A stretch of 19,111 bases of DNA from a virus (IMGVR_UViG_3300047558_000092), one strand, 5' to 3'. Numbered from the stretch's first letter, positions 5,571 to 11,848 are shown. Notes: a model not told the origin generated them from the letters alone. Translations and numbers: made by a program.

Positions 5571-5582
5571 TTCTAATTACTC

Positions 5583-5611
5583 TTGAATTATGGCTATTTA
5601 TGTGATATAAT
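5583..5611 (+). promoter_or_regulatory. Sigma70-type promoter P1 with extended -10
   Basis: TTGAAT (5583-5588), 17-bp spacer, TG-a-TATAAT (5603-5611). Confidence 0.8.
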
Positions 5612-5668: not shown

Positions 5669-7132
5669 ATGCCGTGGAGCGCAAGCAAAACTATTCCCGC
5701 TGTAGAGGGGAAATCCCTTAAGTTGAGAGAGTTATTTGCAAAAGTAGCCAATGCTGCACTCGCTAAAGGACAAACAGAAGAAGAGGCGATTTTCGCTGGT
5801 TTAGGTGCGATAAAAATTGAAGAAAAGAAGCAACCTGTTAAAAAGGTTACAGCCCCTAAACTTCCTGCACATCTCCAAATATTAAAAGATATCGCAAATA
5901 AGCAAGCCGAATCAGTTGAAAAAGTAAAAGAAGTAAAAACTGACACAACTACTGTAGTTTCAGCCGATATTAACCAAACTGGTCATTTAGTATTACTCAT
6001 GTCTGACGGTACTAGGGTAACCACTAAGAGTCCAATACCTAAGGAAATTGTAGAACAAAACGTAGTTGTTACAAATGACACTGCAGCTTTAGTTGCTACT
6101 CAAGAACCTACAGGCTTTGAAACACGCTCCACTTCTCAGTTAGCTTTTGACGATGAAACTAGGACATTCACTATTTCAGGTTTAAATAACGAATTTTCGT
6201 TGTGGCTACATGCAAAAGAATTTACGAAACAATCTGAATCTATTCAATTACCAGATGTTTCAGGTTTATATTTTATTCATTTTGCTTATCCCGATTGTGA
6301 ATTACATTATACGACTACACCTACCTCTGAGCTATTTTTAGATACGGCATTAGTAGCTTTAGTCTATTGGCAAGCTGAAACACAAGAGCATGTATATTTT
6401 GCCGATGAACGTCACGGGATTGTAATGGATGGTGCTACACATAAGCATCTCCATCTATCATTAGGCGCTCAGTACAGAAAAGGTCTGCGTTTATATAACT
6501 TCTATGTAGATGATACTGGTAACTCAGGTTCACACGCTCAGTTCGCTTGTGATTCTGGACAGATTGCTGATGAAGATTTAGTTATTGACATTATTGATGG
6601 TGACGTTCAGACATTATCTACCGTTTTAAATGCTCCTGTCTATTACAGACATGGTGGTGAAACAGCAAACTGGTATAAAACACCTGTCAGTGCTTATCCG
6701 CTTATCTTACCAACTAATAGCCCTTATTATTTTGCAGGTACGCGACCTGCGTATAGTCACGAAGTGGATGGCTTTTGGTATCTAAGTGAAGTACCTAACA
6801 ATCAATTCGTTCTCGTGCATATTGCAGCAACTAATGATGTAGAGAACCCTGTAGTAGCTATCTTAGGTAATACTTATCAAACCAAATCTGGAGCAAGGGC
6901 TGGAGCGAACACTGAATTCGCCGCTATGTCTGGTTTACCTTTCGCAGAATTTGTCAGACTAGGTACAGTCATTTATCAAGTTTCAAATACTTACACTAAC
7001 GTAACAAAAGCTAGAGTCGTTAGCACTGAAGACGGTGCAGACTACATCGATTATAGGGATACAAGTGCTTGGTCACCTACCTCTTCAGTAATCGTAGACC
7101 AACAACAAAATATCGATGGTGGTATTTATTAA
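5669..7132 (+). CDS. Putative virion structural protein with ChaB/YdaT-like N-terminal helical domain and C-terminal IDGGIY tag
   Basis: SD AAGGAG. N-terminus MPWS...LRELFAKVANAALAKGQTEEEAIFAGLGAIK; a GHLVLLMSDG motif seen in fibre proteins; beta-rich body with ERHGIVMDGATH; ends NIDGGIY. Confidence 0.6.
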   Translation: MPWSASKTIPAVEGKSLKLRELFAKVANAALAKGQTEEEAIFAGLGAIKIEEKKQPVKKVTAPKLPAHLQILKDIANKQAESVEKVKEVKTDTTTVVSADINQTGHLVLLMSDGTRVTTKSPIPKEIVEQNVVVTNDTAALVATQEPTGFETRSTSQLAFDDETRTFTISGLNNEFSLWLHAKEFTKQSESIQLPDVSGLYFIHFAYPDCELHYTTTPTSELFLDTALVALVYWQAETQEHVYFADERHGIVMDGATHKHLHLSLGAQYRKGLRLYNFYVDDTGNSGSHAQFACDSGQIADEDLVIDIIDGDVQTLSTVLNAPVYYRHGGETANWYKTPVSAYPLILPTNSPYYFAGTRPAYSHEVDGFWYLSEVPNNQFVLVHIAATNDVENPVVAILGNTYQTKSGARAGANTEFAAMSGLPFAEFVRLGTVIYQVSNTYTNVTKARVVSTEDGADYIDYRDTSAWSPTSSVIVDQQQNIDGGIY

Positions 7133-7145
7133 TTAAGGACGCATA

Positions 7146-7502
7146 ATGCAACCCGCTAATATAGAATTAACTATTTACAAAGGTTCAACTTTTGTCAAAG
7201 CTATTCAGTGGAAAACTGGTAACCCTGCAGCACCCGTAAATCTTATGGGTTGTTCATTACGTATGCAAATCCGTAAGACTGTAACCGATACAACTGTCTT
7301 AGATTCTCTTACAACTGAAAACGGAAAACTAGAGGTTACTAACGCAGCTGAAGGCCGTATTGCTATTAAGATTGCAGCTGCCGCTTCTAGTGCATATGCC
7401 TTCGATAGAGGTGTTTATGATTTAGAGGTAGTCTTCTTAGATGGTTCTGTTTACCGTATCATTGAAGGTGCTGTAACAACCGTACCAGAGGTCACAAGAT
7501 GA
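7146..7502 (+). CDS. Beta-sandwich fibre-attachment adaptor (LtfC/p132/BppU-N-like)
   Basis: 118 aa with characteristic spacing: IYKGSTF...RMQIRK...YDLEV...G-x-V-x-RIIEG...PEVTR. Confidence 0.65.
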   Translation: MQPANIELTIYKGSTFVKAIQWKTGNPAAPVNLMGCSLRMQIRKTVTDTTVLDSLTTENGKLEVTNAAEGRIAIKIAAAASSAYAFDRGVYDLEVVFLDGSVYRIIEGAVTTVPEVTR

Positions 7503-7885
7503 CAACTGATGTTATTGTCGTAGATGATTCAGAGACAATAATTATCAATAATGACCCAATCAGTGTTATTGTAACCAGTGATGATACACTACCAGAAGTA
7601 GTAATCGTAAGTGAAGTCGATACACTGGTAGTTGATAACGAAAAATTAAACGTTATCTTAACTACAGAAGATACTGTAAATGTTATTACAGAAGGTAGTC
7701 AAGGTCCAATGGGTCCACAAGGACCGCAAGGTTTACAAGGGCTTTCAACTAATATCTCTTCTGCACCAGATGTAAACATTACAAATATACAAGACGGTTC
7801 ATTATTGATTTATTCAAGTCAAGAACAAAAGTGGGTTGCCAATACCCAATTAACAAATCAGAGCCTAGAGTCAGGTCATTATTAA
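7499..7885 (+). CDS. Small fibre/linker protein with short collagen segment
   Basis: Acidic V/I-rich N-half, GSQGPMGPQGPQGLQGLS, DVNITNIQDGSLLIYSSQEQKWV motif; ends LESGHY. Confidence 0.65.
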   Translation: MTTDVIVVDDSETIIINNDPISVIVTSDDTLPEVVIVSEVDTLVVDNEKLNVILTTEDTVNVITEGSQGPMGPQGPQGLQGLSTNISSAPDVNITNIQDGSLLIYSSQEQKWVANTQLTNQSLESGHY

Positions 7886-7895
7886 AGGATAAATC

Positions 7896-10181
7896 ATGGC
7901 ATCAATCGTAAGAATTAAACGTTCAGAGGTTTCTGGCAACCCCTCTACGTTAGCACAAGGTGAATTAGCGTATTCAGCCTTACAGGACAACGGCAGTAAT
8001 GGTGGTGACCGCTTATACGTAGGTATGGGTACAGAAACCAATGGTAATGCTGTAAACCATATCGTAATCGGTGGTAAATACTTCACCGACATGATGGACC
8101 ACTCAAAAGGTACATTAACTGCTAACTCTGCATTAATCACAGACGCTAATAGCAAGTTAAATAACATTAAGGTCGATAATATTGATATTGATGGGAATAC
8201 TATTTCCGCTACTGATTCAAATGGTAGTATCAATTTAACACCTAACGGTACTGGCTCTGTCGTATTAGATGGTCAAGCTTTCCCTAATGCTCAAGGCAGC
8301 AACGGTCAATTTTTATCTACAGATGGTGCAGGTCAATTAGCTTGGGCTAGTTTACCACCAAGTGATTTTACAATCGCTGGCAACTCTGGTACAGATATTT
8401 TTAGTACTGGTGGTACATTGACCGTAACAGGTATTGGCGCTATCTCAACAACTGCAGCAAACGATACAATCAGTATCAGCGTAGCAGAAGCTTCTAGCTC
8501 TGTTAAAGGTGTAGCTTCATTCTCATCTACCGACTTTACTGTTAACACAGGTAACGTTAGCTTAAACCACGAAGCAGTCCAAGATATTGTTGGTGATATG
8601 GTCACCTCAAATACTGAGAACGGTATTACAGTTTCTTATGACGATACAGCTGGCAAATTAAACTTTGCAGTAAATAACCCAACGATTACTATTCATGGTG
8701 ACGTAGACGGTTCTGCAACAATGACTAACTTAGGTAACACAAGTATTTCTGTTACCTTAGATACAGTAAATAACACAGTAGGTTCATTCGGTTCTACCAC
8801 AGCTGTTCCTGTTATTACCGTAAACGAAAAAGGTTTAGTCACTAGCGTATCTACAGCAAGTATCTCTTCATCATTTACATTAGCTGCAGATTCTGGTACT
8901 CCAGACGTATTTAATAACGGTGAAACATTAAGCTTCATCGGTGGTGAAGGCATTAACACTGTAATTAGTGGTGTCAATAACCGTATTACAATCTCAGCTG
9001 AAGATGCGACAGATACAAACAAGGGTATCGCTACTTTCAACGCAGGAAACTTCGTAGTAGTTGCTGGCGATGTTACATTAAAAGATGCAGGTATTACTAA
9101 CGCCAAGTTAGTTAACTCAGGTCTAACTATCGGTTCCACTAATGTTTCATTAGGTGGCACAATCACTAGCTTAAGTGGTTTAACTGAATTACAAGTTGAT
9201 AATATCAACATTAACGGTAACACAATCGGTGCTACAGATACTAACGGGAATATTAACTTAGCTCCTACAGGTACTGGTGTTGTTGACGTAACAGATTCTC
9301 GCATCGTAGGTGTCGCTACTCCAGTTAACCCAACAGATGCAGCTAACAAAGCTTATGTAGATAATGCCGTAACAGGTCTTTCATTCAAGCAAGCTGTGCA
9401 TTTAATGGCAGATGTAAACGTAGCTTTAACAGGCTCTACATCTACATTAGTTATCGATGGTCATAGTGCATTAACACAGACACATGGTAACGGGTATCGC
9501 ATTCTACTAACAGGCCAAACAACTGCCTCTGAAAATGGTATCTATCTTTACAGCGATAACGGTACAACATACGAATTAGCTCGTGCAGCAGATGCAGATG
9601 CCTACACAGAACTTTTCGGTGCTTCAGTATACGTTCTTGAAGGTGTAACTTACGGTAAAACTGGTTGGGTTCAAACTAATCACTACCTCACCAGTTTCTC
9701 TAACCAAGTTTGGACACAATTCTCTGGTGCTGGCGCTTATGTCGCTGGTGCAGGTCTTGTACTAACTGGCACTACATTTGACGTAGTTGGTGGTGCAGGT
9801 ATTAGCGTTACAACTAATGCTGTAAATCTTGCAGATTCAGTAGCAGGTGATGGTCTTACATTCTCTTCTGGTGTAATCGCTGTTGCAGGTACTGCAAATA
9901 GAATTTCTGTATCGGCAGATGCTATTGACATTGCATCTACATATGTCGGTCAAACAAGTATTACTACATTAGGCACTGTTACTACAGGTACATGGTCAGC
10001 TGACACAATTGCAGCTACTAAGGGTGGTACAGGCTTGACAACTTATGCAATTGGTGATATACTATATGCATCAGATGAAAATACATTGTCAAAATTAACT
10101 ATCGGCGCAAATGGTAAAGTTCTCCAAGTTAACGGAAGCGGAATACCAGTTTGGGCAGATTTAGATGGTGGTACATACTAA
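7896..10181 (+). CDS. Large trimeric fibre-like virion protein with internal duplicated modules
   Basis: 761 aa, T/G/S/N-rich. N-terminal IKRS...GELAY, DAANKAYVD trimer motif, duplicated VDNI-x-I-x-GNTI-x-ATD-x-NG module; ends ADLDGGTY. Confidence 0.75.
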   Translation: MASIVRIKRSEVSGNPSTLAQGELAYSALQDNGSNGGDRLYVGMGTETNGNAVNHIVIGGKYFTDMMDHSKGTLTANSALITDANSKLNNIKVDNIDIDGNTISATDSNGSINLTPNGTGSVVLDGQAFPNAQGSNGQFLSTDGAGQLAWASLPPSDFTIAGNSGTDIFSTGGTLTVTGIGAISTTAANDTISISVAEASSSVKGVASFSSTDFTVNTGNVSLNHEAVQDIVGDMVTSNTENGITVSYDDTAGKLNFAVNNPTITIHGDVDGSATMTNLGNTSISVTLDTVNNTVGSFGSTTAVPVITVNEKGLVTSVSTASISSSFTLAADSGTPDVFNNGETLSFIGGEGINTVISGVNNRITISAEDATDTNKGIATFNAGNFVVVAGDVTLKDAGITNAKLVNSGLTIGSTNVSLGGTITSLSGLTELQVDNININGNTIGATDTNGNINLAPTGTGVVDVTDSRIVGVATPVNPTDAANKAYVDNAVTGLSFKQAVHLMADVNVALTGSTSTLVIDGHSALTQTHGNGYRILLTGQTTASENGIYLYSDNGTTYELARAADADAYTELFGASVYVLEGVTYGKTGWVQTNHYLTSFSNQVWTQFSGAGAYVAGAGLVLTGTTFDVVGGAGISVTTNAVNLADSVAGDGLTFSSGVIAVAGTANRISVSADAIDIASTYVGQTSITTLGTVTTGTWSADTIAATKGGTGLTTYAIGDILYASDENTLSKLTIGANGKVLQVNGSGIPVWADLDGGTY

Positions 10182-10188
10182 ATAATAC

Positions 10189-10214
10189 GGGCGGTTTTTA
10201 CCGCCCTTTCTTTT
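10189..10214 (+). terminator. Rho-independent terminator
   Basis: gggcggt-tttt-accgccc followed by tttctttt. Confidence 0.85.
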
Positions 10215-10234
10215 ACCTTTATTAAGGATTGTAA

Positions 10235-11809
10235 ATGTCAAATAAACTACTACTCAAGAAGTCTTCAGTAGCGTCTAAAGTCCCTCTTACGACAGACTTA
10301 GATTATGGCGAGTTAGCAATTAACTACACCGATGGAAAATTATACTTCAAAGATGCAAGCAATGAAGTTAAATTCTTTCAAGCAGGTAGCGGTGGAAACT
10401 TTACAGTTTCCGATACAGCGCCAGCAAGTCCATCTAACGGTCAACCTTGGTGGAACAGTACACAAGGCCGTTTATACCTCTATTATATAGATGGTTCATC
10501 AGGTCAATGGGTAGATGCAAGCCCTAGCGTAGCTGGTCCTCAAGGTGTAGCTGGCACGATTACGGTAGGCACAGTCACTACAGGTACGGCAGGTTCTAAC
10601 GTAGCAATTACTAACACTGGAACAGCAAGTGCAGCAGTTTTAAATTTTACAATTCCACAAGGCGCTACTGGTGCTGCAGGTGCAGCTGGTACAATGACAA
10701 TTGGTACTGTCACAACAGGTGCGGCAGGTACTTCAGCTTCTGTTACTAACGTAGGCACTTCCACAGAAGCTATTTTAAATATTAGCATTCCTCGTGGTGA
10801 TACTGGTGCTACAGGTCCACAGGGTCCAGCAGGTCCAACAGGTCCACAGGGTCCAACAGGCGCTACTGGTGCTACAGGCGCAACGGGGGCTACAGGTGCT
10901 ACTGGTCCAGCAGGTCCAACAGGTCCACAGGGTCCAGCTGGTACGGTTACTGGCCTTACTTTAACTGACTCAAGTAATGGCATTAATCCAGATAACGTTA
11001 CACAAAACCAAATAGGTTATAATACCAGTGTTAGCTTATTCGGTCAAAATGATGGTGGCTTACACTCTTCTGCATACAGCTCTGCATGGATTCATCAAAT
11101 CTACGGTGACTTTAGAACTGGTCAAATTGCTATTCGCGGTAAAAATAATGGTACATGGCAATCATGGAGAACTGTATTAGATTCCAGTAATTATTCAAGT
11201 TATGCTATGCCAATAAATGGTGGGGTTAATGTTAACTTTGATATTGCTTCTAATACTAATTCCAGTTATTACTATGACGCAGCTATTGAATTACGGGAAT
11301 TAAATCATGGCGGCGCTCAAGGTGCAGCAGGTGGATTTCAAGCAATTGGACCTAGATTAGGTTTCCATTGGGATGGTGTTGTAGCTTCTCAAATTTCAAT
11401 GCAGAGTGATGGTGCTATTTGTATTATTAATAATCCCGGTACTGCTTATGAACAATTACGTTCAGGAACATTTACATCCTCTGGCAACGTTACTGCTTAT
11501 TCTGACGAGAGATTAAAAACTGATTGGGTAGATTTACCGAACGACTTTATTTACAATCTAGCTAAAGTAAAAAATGGTACATACACCAGATTAGATAATG
11601 GAATGCGCCAAGCAGGTTCATCTGCACAAGATTGGCAAAAATTATTACCAGAGGTGGTGCAAGTATCTAGTGATGACGAGAAGACTTTATCACTCGCTTA
11701 TGGTAATGCAGCATTAGTTTCATCTGTAGAATTAGCTAAAAAAGTAGTCGAACAAGAAGCCAGAATTAGCCAACTAGAGTGCTTAATTGCTAAAATTATT
11801 GACAACTAA
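10235..11809 (+). CDS. Tail/head fibre with collagen-like stalk and C-terminal peptidase S74 intramolecular chaperone
   Basis: N-terminal LKKS...[15 protein letters not shown]; 16 G-X-Y triplets; [16 protein letters not shown] knob motif; [10 protein letters not shown] autocleavage motif (Ser codon 11501-11503) and C-terminal coiled coil. Confidence 0.85.
10796..10939 (+). repeat. Collagen-like repeat (16 G-X-Y triplets) containing a perfect 33-bp direct repeat
   Basis: ggtccagcaggtccaacaggtccacagggtcca at 10823-10855 and 10904-10936. Confidence 0.95.
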
Positions 11810-11819
11810 TACATTTCTC

Positions 11820-11848
11820 TTGATTTTTCTATAAAAATGTGATATAAT
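11820..11848 (+). promoter_or_regulatory. Sigma70-type promoter P2 with extended -10
   Basis: TTGATT (11820-11825), 17-bp spacer, TG-a-TATAAT (11840-11848). Shares TCTTGA and ATGTGATATAAT with P1. Confidence 0.8.

Follow-up and report, generated by a model that had tools for sequence, protein, structure and literature searches.

A C-terminal hexapeptide and an N-terminal GELA domain as a candidate joint between phage fibre segments

Multi-segment fibres, and the conserved N-terminal parts by which fibre proteins are attached, are already known. The joint between gp36 and gp37 of T4 has itself been known for decades. The viral contig IMGVR_UViG_3300047558_000092 (the window, meaning the whole 19,111-nucleotide stretch analysed) raises the question of whether partner choice can be read from adjacent genes. 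Three of its proteins end in the same hexapeptide pattern (IDGGIY, LESGHY and LDGGTY); a (I/L)K(R/K)S...GELA domain stands at the start of two of its proteins. A preliminary description of the sequence proposed that tag and domain form a reusable docking pair chaining an adaptor, a linker, a 761-aa fibre and a terminal S74 fibre, and allowing mix-and-match of segments. The features concerned are:

5669..7132, plus strand: 487-aa virion protein, ending NIDGGIY
7112..7129, plus strand: tag 1, IDGGIY, DGGxY class, within the lineage-specific extension DQQQNIDGGIY
7146..7502, plus strand: 118-aa beta-sandwich protein, homologue of T5 p132 and DT57C LtfC, putative chain anchor
7499..7885, plus strand: 128-aa linker, ending SLESGHY
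7865..7882, plus strand: tag 2, LESGHY, variable class x[DENTS][GSA]Gx[YF], end of the 128-aa linker
7896..10181, plus strand: 761-aa proximal fibre, ending DLDGGTY
7896..8045, plus strand: type-A GELA domain (IVRIKRS..GELAYS..GGDRLYVG), N-terminal, GELA HMM match, row 2 of alignment A1
10161..10178, plus strand: tag 3, LDGGTY, DGG[TS][YF] class, end of the 761-aa fibre
10189..10214, plus strand: intrinsic terminator, GGGCGG-TTTTTA-CCGCCC and a T-run, separating the proximal fibre gene from the distal one
10235..11809, plus strand: 524-aa distal fibre with no tag; type-B GELA domain, GDLWY-like motif, collagen repeats and Peptidase_S74
10235..10384, plus strand: type-B GELA domain ([27 protein letters not shown]), AF2 model, profile A1

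Tag ranges here exclude the stop codons, which the preliminary description had included. Its basic observations are borne out: the three tagged proteins (5669-7132, 7499-7885, 7896-10181) carry the pattern right at the stop, the two GELA motifs lie in N-terminal domains (nt 7959 corresponds to residue 22 of the 761-aa protein, nt 10307 to residue 25 of the 524-aa one), each GELA gene comes straight after a tag gene, at a distance of 10 nt (linker to 761-aa) or 53 nt (761-aa to 524-aa), and the S74 fibre has the domain and no tag. The C-terminal domain of the latter (PF13884, residues 423-475, 31.2 bits with a cut-off of 22) is, on its Pfam match, an intramolecular chaperone domain; collagen repeats occupy residues 188-238 (PF01391, 29.5 bits), and the PHROG matches of this protein are tail fibre families. 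Homologues of the 761-aa fibre were found in 78 IMG/VR loci, with identity down to 33%, and most intact ones retain both the N-domain and the C-terminal tag; its PHROG matches are only unknown-function or head decoration families. The 761-aa and 524-aa genes are in different frames, so each fibre is a polypeptide of its own. The different frames of the gene pairs, together with the intrinsic terminator between these two genes, speak against any read-through or fusion between neighbours, and that explanation was rejected.

A C-terminal [IL][DE][GS]GxY is expected by our own estimate from residue frequencies about 5e-6 times per protein, and with three among some 24 proteins the tags are not due to chance. 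In six-frame ORFs from all fetched loci the motif [ILVMF]DGG[TS][YF] has 205 terminal occurrences, 5 that stop one or two residues short of the end and 3 that are internal, so that in 210 of 213 cases from fetched phage loci the DGGTY-type hexapeptide is at, or at most two residues from, the C-terminus. What precedes it comprises more than 100 unrelated C-terminal contexts, including a hairpin module, a coiled coil and a beta-helix; the tag is a terminal, autonomous element. The earlier statement that the tagged proteins of the window are otherwise unrelated does not fully hold for the linker and the 761-aa fibre, which have a short hairpin-like module in common ahead of the tag (DGSLLIY..KWV and NGKVLQV..PVW).

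Tag and domain go together well beyond this locus. With 120 loci picked by IDGGTY-stop alone, genes with a relaxed tag were followed by a GELA gene in 112 cases and by another gene in 56, the corresponding numbers for untagged genes being 31 and 1223; these counts, like the pairing counts below, are drawn from related phages and the events are not independent. When GELA-bearing proteins are considered, 87 had both a tag and a GELA gene next, 15 a tag only, 7 a GELA gene next only and 107 neither (odds ratio 89, Fisher p 1.7e-35), and terminal fibre segments are without a tag. Conversely, 57 of 60 genes picked by the type-B domain alone are downstream of a tag-ending gene, the upstream tag being of the DGG[TS][YF] class in 54 of the 60. 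In the genome survey of adjacency suggested in the preliminary description, the pairing of tag and domain is thus not due to chance. Subtypes also correspond (112/11 vs 7/74, p 6e-35): the DGG[TS][YF] class precedes a type-B domain in 112 of 119 pairs, and the variable class a type-A domain in 74 of 81 tagged pairs. The gene after a DGGTY tag retains the domain over lengths from 118 to 1221 aa and with unrelated C-termini, making visible the mix-and-match of segments proposed at the outset. In rare natural fusions (P0011, P0004 and P0003, to which P0005 may be added as judged by eye) ID(G) runs via 3-5 residues into the LLLKRS strand of GELA. Mutual information between tag positions and domain columns was high everywhere and, being dominated by clade structure, gave no usable contacts.

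Attention is drawn to T4, where a joint of this type already exists; the preliminary description overlooked it, as it did the collar base and the probable membership of the Mtd_N superfamily dealt with below. Residues 5-57 of gp37 match profile A1 (hhalign probability 97.8%, E 9.3e-13), and gp36, encoded just upstream, ends in QDFGYY. It is to the N-terminal region of gp37 that the gp36 trimer binds (PMC3004832), the end of gp36 that is in contact being assigned from older electron microscopy and genetics. As in the window, the genes are adjacent and in assembly order, the distal partner opens with a homologous GELA domain, and the upstream partner ends in acidic-x-Gly-x-aromatic, the tail being DFGYY in T4 as against DGGTY or ESGHY in the window. 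Attachment differs, the T4 chain being connected via gp35, gp34 and gp9 to the baseplate of a contractile tail and that of the window presumably via an LtfC-like collar. For gp34-gp35-gp36 and the distal rod, a 2026 T4 preprint offers refined models of low resolution only (10.64898/2026.03.06.709160), and in the T4 fibre literature consulted neither the gp36 tail nor the gp37 domain is named as a determinant of the joint. In the literature consulted on such tails, Mtd_N and fibre joints, a description of the tag/domain pairing was likewise not found. As the pairing occurs in thousands of phages including the gp36-gp37 case, it probably marks both the place and the order of joining; adjacency, presence and absence, subtype, fusions and T4 together argue strongly, on comparative grounds, for the reusable joint first suggested for this locus.

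By profile comparison the GELA domain comes out as Mtd_N-like though divergent, and it probably belongs to the Mtd_N superfamily. PF18454 (Mtd_N) was matched by 10 of 30 diverse aligned GELA domains (best E 2.5e-15), and the window's own domains, searched as single sequences, gave no match to Pfam, PF18454 included, or NCBIfam. The family is large, about 31,000 clusters (31,156) at 50% identity, and its position is nearly invariant: N-terminal in 306 of 308 HMM matches, and with residue 1 as its first position in almost every one of the best 150 of the 31,156 clusters. The two domains of the window form rows 1 and 2 of profile A1. The profile match to Mtd itself is weak (probability 36%), and a PDB sequence search with the GELA domain profile gave no credible match. 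The AF2 model of the type-B domain (98 sequences) has four strands, with pLDDT 87-96 for residues 1-50. A fold search with it gave weak matches, the best being collagen XV/XVIII trimerisation domains (Z 4.5 and 4.3), and Foldseek gave weak rows for HylP and the A-1(L) fibre; Mtd, whose residues 1-48 have a beta-prism fold, is not among the fold matches listed.

We consider it likely that the cassette at 7146-11809 encodes a three-segment lateral fibre of separate trimers set end-to-end and held by tag/GELA joints. The sequences, the homologies and the co-occurrence statistics are what the analysis shows, and from them we infer the binding, the joint geometry and the place of the collar on the virion. 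Its real base would be the 118-aa protein, presumably located on the virion as the anchor. The family profile (A4) matches p132 (7qg9_R, E 2.3e-9) and LtfC (8hqz_Q, E 2.9e-9), the protein matches PHROG 3304 (E 1.6e-8), and the single sequence scores 25.1 bits against Pfam LtfC, below the cut-off of 27. In about 50 contexts less than 70% identical, the gene upstream of a tagged linker and GELA fibre is mostly of this collar family. LtfC anchors LtfA by strand augmentation, and it is proposed that short strands at the N-terminus of the fibre slot into the collar (PMC10713586). By analogy with that work, and from the strand-like repeats of the linker, a dodecameric tail ring might grip the N-terminal strands of the fibre. 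The linker has short beta-strand-like repeats at its N-terminus, then a short collagen-like stretch (residues 66-78, nt 7694-7732), the conserved DGSLLIY..KWV module and tag 2. In an alignment of 40 diverse linkers the C-terminal module and tag are conserved and the N-terminus is variable; a profile sequence search of the PDB with the linker gave no solved relative.

In such a chain the N-terminal strands of the linker would engage the collar and its LESGHY tail would be presented outward, to be capped by the type-A GELA domain of the 761-aa fibre, whose own C-terminus would present LDGGTY to the type-B domain of the S74 fibre. The latter would bear the receptor-binding end, and would be without a tag because no segment comes after it. 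The tag layout (hydrophobic, D/E/N, small, G, x, Y/F, free carboxylate) would most likely place it against the first GELA strand, as half of a split beta-hairpin, and the two tag/domain classes, if non-interchangeable, would set the order of segments. T5 and DT57C resemble this in the homologous collar protein (E ~2e-9) and in having fibres of more than one protein. However, in DT57C it is LtfA itself that enters the collar and LtfB branches from LtfA, whereas here a separate small linker would be interposed and the further joints would be tag/GELA pairs, which PMC10713586 does not describe for either phage.

One element of the original proposal has to be given up, namely the 487-aa protein as the adaptor that starts the chain: the gene following it is the collar gene and not a GELA gene, its tag is restricted to a subclade, and its body is receptor-binding-like. 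The AF2 model (mean pLDDT 86) comprises an N-terminal helical domain (1-55), a small beta unit, a receptor-binding-type core (~141-465) and a flexible tail. Within the core, residues 141-250 are similar to the A-1(L) fibre (8kec_B, Z 8.4) and to the Mtd intermediate domain (1yu0, Z 7.5); taken in its entirety, the core is similar to a phi812 baseplate protein (9euj_G, Z 7.5; next match Z 2.8); Pfam and PHROG gave no match and ESM Atlas was uninformative. The tail (467-487, pLDDT 29-35, no secondary structure) is predicted to be unstructured and not packed against its own domain. The tag belongs to an extension of 11 residues found in a single subclade, sister homologues stopping at ..LV[LI]F (alignment A3), and among the close homologues listed the extension ends NIDGGIY, NIDGGIYQx or TINGGTY. 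Judged from its model, this protein is of the receptor-binding type and not an adaptor; its tag is specific to the lineage, and no partner is dedicated to it. In the lineage of the window it has acquired its DGGxY tail, and it may recruit the same S74 fibre.

One alternative, which we regard as unlikely, is that the tag acts in its own protein, as a cap or registration signal for trimer folding or as a chaperone handle, with GELA adjacency reflecting the clustering of fibre genes. Many tags do stand after a foldon-like hairpin (G.vL..G..P.W), the nearest folds to the GELA model are trimerisation domains, such that both elements could be trimerisation units, and podovirus stub proteins of ~77 aa with IDGGTY have no GELA gene inside the fetched locus in 21 of 23 cases. 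However, very different folds precede the tag, within fibre segments it occurs essentially only ahead of another GELA gene, its subtype tracks the domain subtype of the next gene, and the fused forms have a short turn in place of GGTY. Docking of the tag on some other part of the virion (collar, neck, baseplate or capsid), with GELA binding the body of the upstream fibre instead of its last six residues, is about equally improbable. It would accommodate the three tags and two GELA domains of the window, with three near-complete relatives having two GELA genes each and no third, tagged proteins without GELA neighbours, such as some T4-like marine fibres whose next gene is a gp13-like neck gene or a small coiled-coil gene, and the contact of T4 fibritin with the gp36-gp37 junction (PMC3004832). 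The unpartnered tags, the differing T4 tail and the weak fold matches also weigh against the joint proposed above. Yet within the cassette the collar gene is upstream of the linker and not after a tag, the subtype match is to the downstream domain, and in the fusions the position of the tag is covalently continuous with the GELA strand. That tag and domain are functionally unlinked and merely co-travel as a conserved ancestral block is very unlikely: many loci are relatives found by homology and the mutual-information signal follows clades, yet distal genes are extensively swapped with only the N-domain retained, unrelated proteins, the 487-aa family among them, have had the tag added as a short extension, the motif hardly ever lies inside a protein, and the pairing occurs in siphovirus and myovirus contexts on contigs of up to 231 kb.

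Whether the joint proposed for this fibre belongs to a general connector code is a more tentative matter, to which we give somewhat less than an even chance. At least three tail classes, DGG[TS][YF], x[DENTS][GSA]Gx[YF] and D[LYF]Gxx, would be read by matching Mtd_N/GELA subclasses; the lineages concerned would number tens of thousands, with T4 (gp36-gp37) and BPP-1 (Bbp9-Mtd) among them. Mtd is the receptor-binding trimer at the ends of the BPP-1 tail fibres (PMC2408619) and, like the window fibres, has a small N-terminal beta domain (Mtd_N, PF18454). The upstream fibre gene, bbp9, ends in ADLGGIA, which resembles the D-[LYF]-G-x-x tails preceding classic Mtd_N genes and, unlike the tags of the window, is without a terminal aromatic residue. 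Such a code, if real, would dictate the assembly order of segments and explain plug-in exchange of receptor-binding modules. Should the pairing be the joint, fibre architecture, meaning both partners and order, could be read directly from genomes, there would be a concrete hypothesis to test for the joints of T4 and BPP-1, whose structures are unsolved, mosaic exchange of distal fibres would be explained, and a natural, small, orthogonal connector for receptor-binding modules would be at hand for laboratory phage work.

Modular attachment of interchangeable receptor-binding proteins has parallels in the branched tailspike adaptors of CBA120 and G7C and in adenovirus fibre-tail/penton docking, all via conserved N-terminal parts or short peptides. 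The domains involved in CBA120 and G7C (T4 gp10-like or XD) are unrelated to GELA and adenovirus uses an N-terminal peptide, whereas the joint of the window would combine a proximal C-terminal peptide with a distal N-terminal cap. In Anabaena phage A-1(L) a loop at the C-terminus of gp32 holds the shoulder of the fibre (PMC10966104); as an instance of the same joint it was rejected, gp34 being without a GELA domain and gp32 without a tag. The source of the fibre cassette is a freshwater phage. In Limnohabitans phage DC31, a cultured relative that has this cassette too, tag 2 is conserved as IESGQY.

The window carries the structural genes of a freshwater phage of siphovirus-like type: small and large terminase genes and a Mu-type portal precede a 6-kb fibre cassette, followed by an XkdF-type protease, scaffold, decoration and major capsid proteins, connectors, tail terminator and tail tube. 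Gene order is identical in its closest cultured relative, Limnohabitans phage DC31. The cassette probably encodes a variant of a system of known kind, fibre segments joined end to end as in T4 gp36-gp37, here on a collar like that of T5; what appears undescribed is the sequence rule behind the joint, a literature search having found, in keeping with the preliminary description, no paper describing a pairing of C-terminal hexapeptide tags with N-terminal GELA domains. The three tags and two domains from which that pairing was proposed are present:

7112-7132: IDGGIY, end of the 487-aa protein (gene 5669-7132)
7865-7885: LESGHY, end of the 128-aa linker
GELA at 7959: type-A N-terminus of the 761-aa fibre, IVRIKRS..GELAYS
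10161-10181: LDGGTY, end of the 761-aa fibre
GELA at 10307: type-B N-terminus of the 524-aa S74 fibre, LLLKKSS..GELAINY

Each GELA gene in the window directly follows a tag gene, as had been noticed, and the same is true of DC31, whose linker ends IESGQY and whose fibre ends IDGGTY, though there the 487-aa homologue is untagged. The order of collar gene, tagged small linker and type-A fibre is found again in ~50 diverse contexts, T4-like marine phages and one 231-kb contig among them; a smaller set was checked for a type-B gene downstream of the type-A fibre. The reading frame changes between the 761-aa and 524-aa genes and an intrinsic terminator separates them, so their products are separate polypeptides. 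That terminator (10189-10214) is strong, and a promoter-like site, near-consensus TTGACA-17-TATACT with TG, lies inside the 3′ part of the 761-aa gene (10035-10063); the two may jointly set the ratio of the fibres. The whole cassette is flanked by two 36-nt promoter-like sequences (5576-5611 and 11813-11848), 75% identical and both ending in an extended -10 element, TGTGATATAAT.

Three surveys with different ascertainment address the generality of the pairing. Among 78 IMG/VR loci retrieved with the 761-aa fibre, most intact homologues, down to 33% identity, retain both tag and domain, and the gene after them (DC31 included) keeps the N-domain alone while ranging from 118 to 1221 aa, which bears out the earlier idea of mix-and-match segments. 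Essentially all listed matches to a DNA pattern for IDGGTY-stop, the basis of the second survey, are genuine ORF ends; scored there with a domain HMM and relaxed tag over at least 120 stretches, the next gene is GELA after 112 tagged genes and another after 56, versus 31 and 1223 after untagged genes. With loci chosen by the type-B domain only, 54 of 60 upstream genes carry a DGGTY-type tag and three another tag, the remaining three being apparently wrong-frame ORFs. The hexapeptide is terminal in 205 instances, within two residues of the end in five and internal in three, and is preceded by more than 100 dissimilar C-terminal contexts; it thus behaves as an autonomous terminal element.

A joint, as against mere clustering of the two elements, is favoured by the GELA-bearing proteins themselves: 87 have a tag and a GELA gene next, 107 have neither, and the exceptions number 15 and 7 (Fisher p 1.7e-35), several of these being classic Mtd_N genes that the HMM missed, or cases of one small gene interposed. 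Subtypes also pair (p 6e-35), with DGG[TS][YF] standing before domains with an xSDL insertion (type B), 112 vs 11, and variable tags (ESGHY, EGGEF, NGGNF and others) before the shorter type-A domain, 74 vs 7. The window obeys this rule, LESGHY preceding type A and LDGGTY type B, and two orthogonal tag/domain pairs would enforce assembly order. Three of the best matches in a library-wide profile search, and by eye a fourth, P0005, have an internal second GELA domain, only 3-5 residues separating it from the upstream ..ID(G), e.g. ..GFTID-ANT-SNKLLLKRSS versus a split form in which ..GFNIDGGTY and a stop are followed by the next protein's start (11 residues). Such fusions would put the tag right next to the GELA domain's first strand. 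The counts are drawn from related phages, so the events are not independent, and what mutual information picked up between tag and domain columns was mainly clade structure, with no contacts that could be used. That tag and domain bind, and in what geometry, is inferred from sequence comparison. Co-occurrence, subtype pairing and fusions thus favour the proposed docking pair, but not the part of the proposal in which the 487-aa protein heads the chain as adaptor.

That protein is not such an adaptor. Complete relatives have no more than two GELA genes and a single GGxY-stop, leaving its tag without a dedicated partner; the tag may be idle or may recruit the S74 fibre as well. It is an 11-residue extension of one subclade (NIDGGIY, NIDGGIYQx, TINGGTY), sister clades lacking it and ending ..LV[LI]F, and residues 467-487 are without structure in the AF2 model. 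In this model (pLDDT 86) a helical N-terminal domain is followed by a core, the first part of which resembles the Mtd intermediate domain and A-1(L) fibre, and the whole a phi812 baseplate protein (Z 7.3-8.4 for core matches; next 2.8). Core homologues occur behind many kinds of N-termini, one being Mtd_N. Within the core (residues ~141-465, 6090-7060), ERHG, several His and DED are invariant in 85 homologues, a hint that the site may be catalytic or bind metal.

Tags also occur elsewhere. IDGGTY ends podovirus stub proteins of ~77 aa (SPTFTG...GTIDGGTY; L081, L094, L098 and ~20 further loci), with no GELA gene near them within the fetched loci; in these tail modules the stub gene is followed, with a 1-nt overlap, by one for a Gly-rich protein of 250-610 aa. 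Some marine T4-like fibres preceding a gp13-like neck gene are tagged. Such long fibres (contigs L091, L108, L128, L281, L291, L310) occupy the fibritin position and end in IDGGTY or another recurrent tail, ..A[IL]A[LM][AS]I[AV][LF]G.

Pfam Mtd_N (PF18454) is matched by 10 of 30 diverse GELA N-termini, the window's own copies giving no match, and the GELA profile finds 31,156 clusters (E up to 1e-3) among 1.84 billion representatives, starting almost always at residue 1. Residues 1-50 of the S74 fibre are modelled by AF2 as a four-stranded unit (pLDDT 87-96), with weak fold matches, the best being collagen XV/XVIII trimerisation domains. After the cap, a GDLWY..G.LY.Y..D.S.QWV-type motif (10430-10530; residues ~65-98) is seen, present in 1-3 copies in many cap-bearing proteins and scoring weakly with the cap profile itself. 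The 118-aa protein is homologous to the collar protein T5 p132 / DT57C LtfC (profile E ~2e-9), the latter a dodecameric ring holding N-terminal strands of the fibre (PMC10713586). A 197-aa PDB chain named only 'Structural protein', 26dk_M, matches the LtfC-like profile (E 3.4e-8) and may belong to a solved virion that has a collar of this type.

T4 gp37 has a clear GELA domain at its N-terminus, like the window's fibres, and gp36, encoded immediately upstream, ends QDFGYY; the gp36 trimer binds the gp37 N-terminal region (PMC3004832), and in a 2026 preprint gp34-gp35-gp36 and the distal rod are refined only as low-resolution models (10.64898/2026.03.06.709160). In metagenomic loci (L284-L309; L097, L100, L121), the gene that precedes a classic Mtd_N domain ends KDLGYLT, IDYGTL or EDLGSV, and Bbp9 of BPP-1 (L200:4599-6125), upstream of Mtd, ends ADLGGIA. 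These tails may form a third class of tag, and QDFGYY of T4 gp36 is closest to it.
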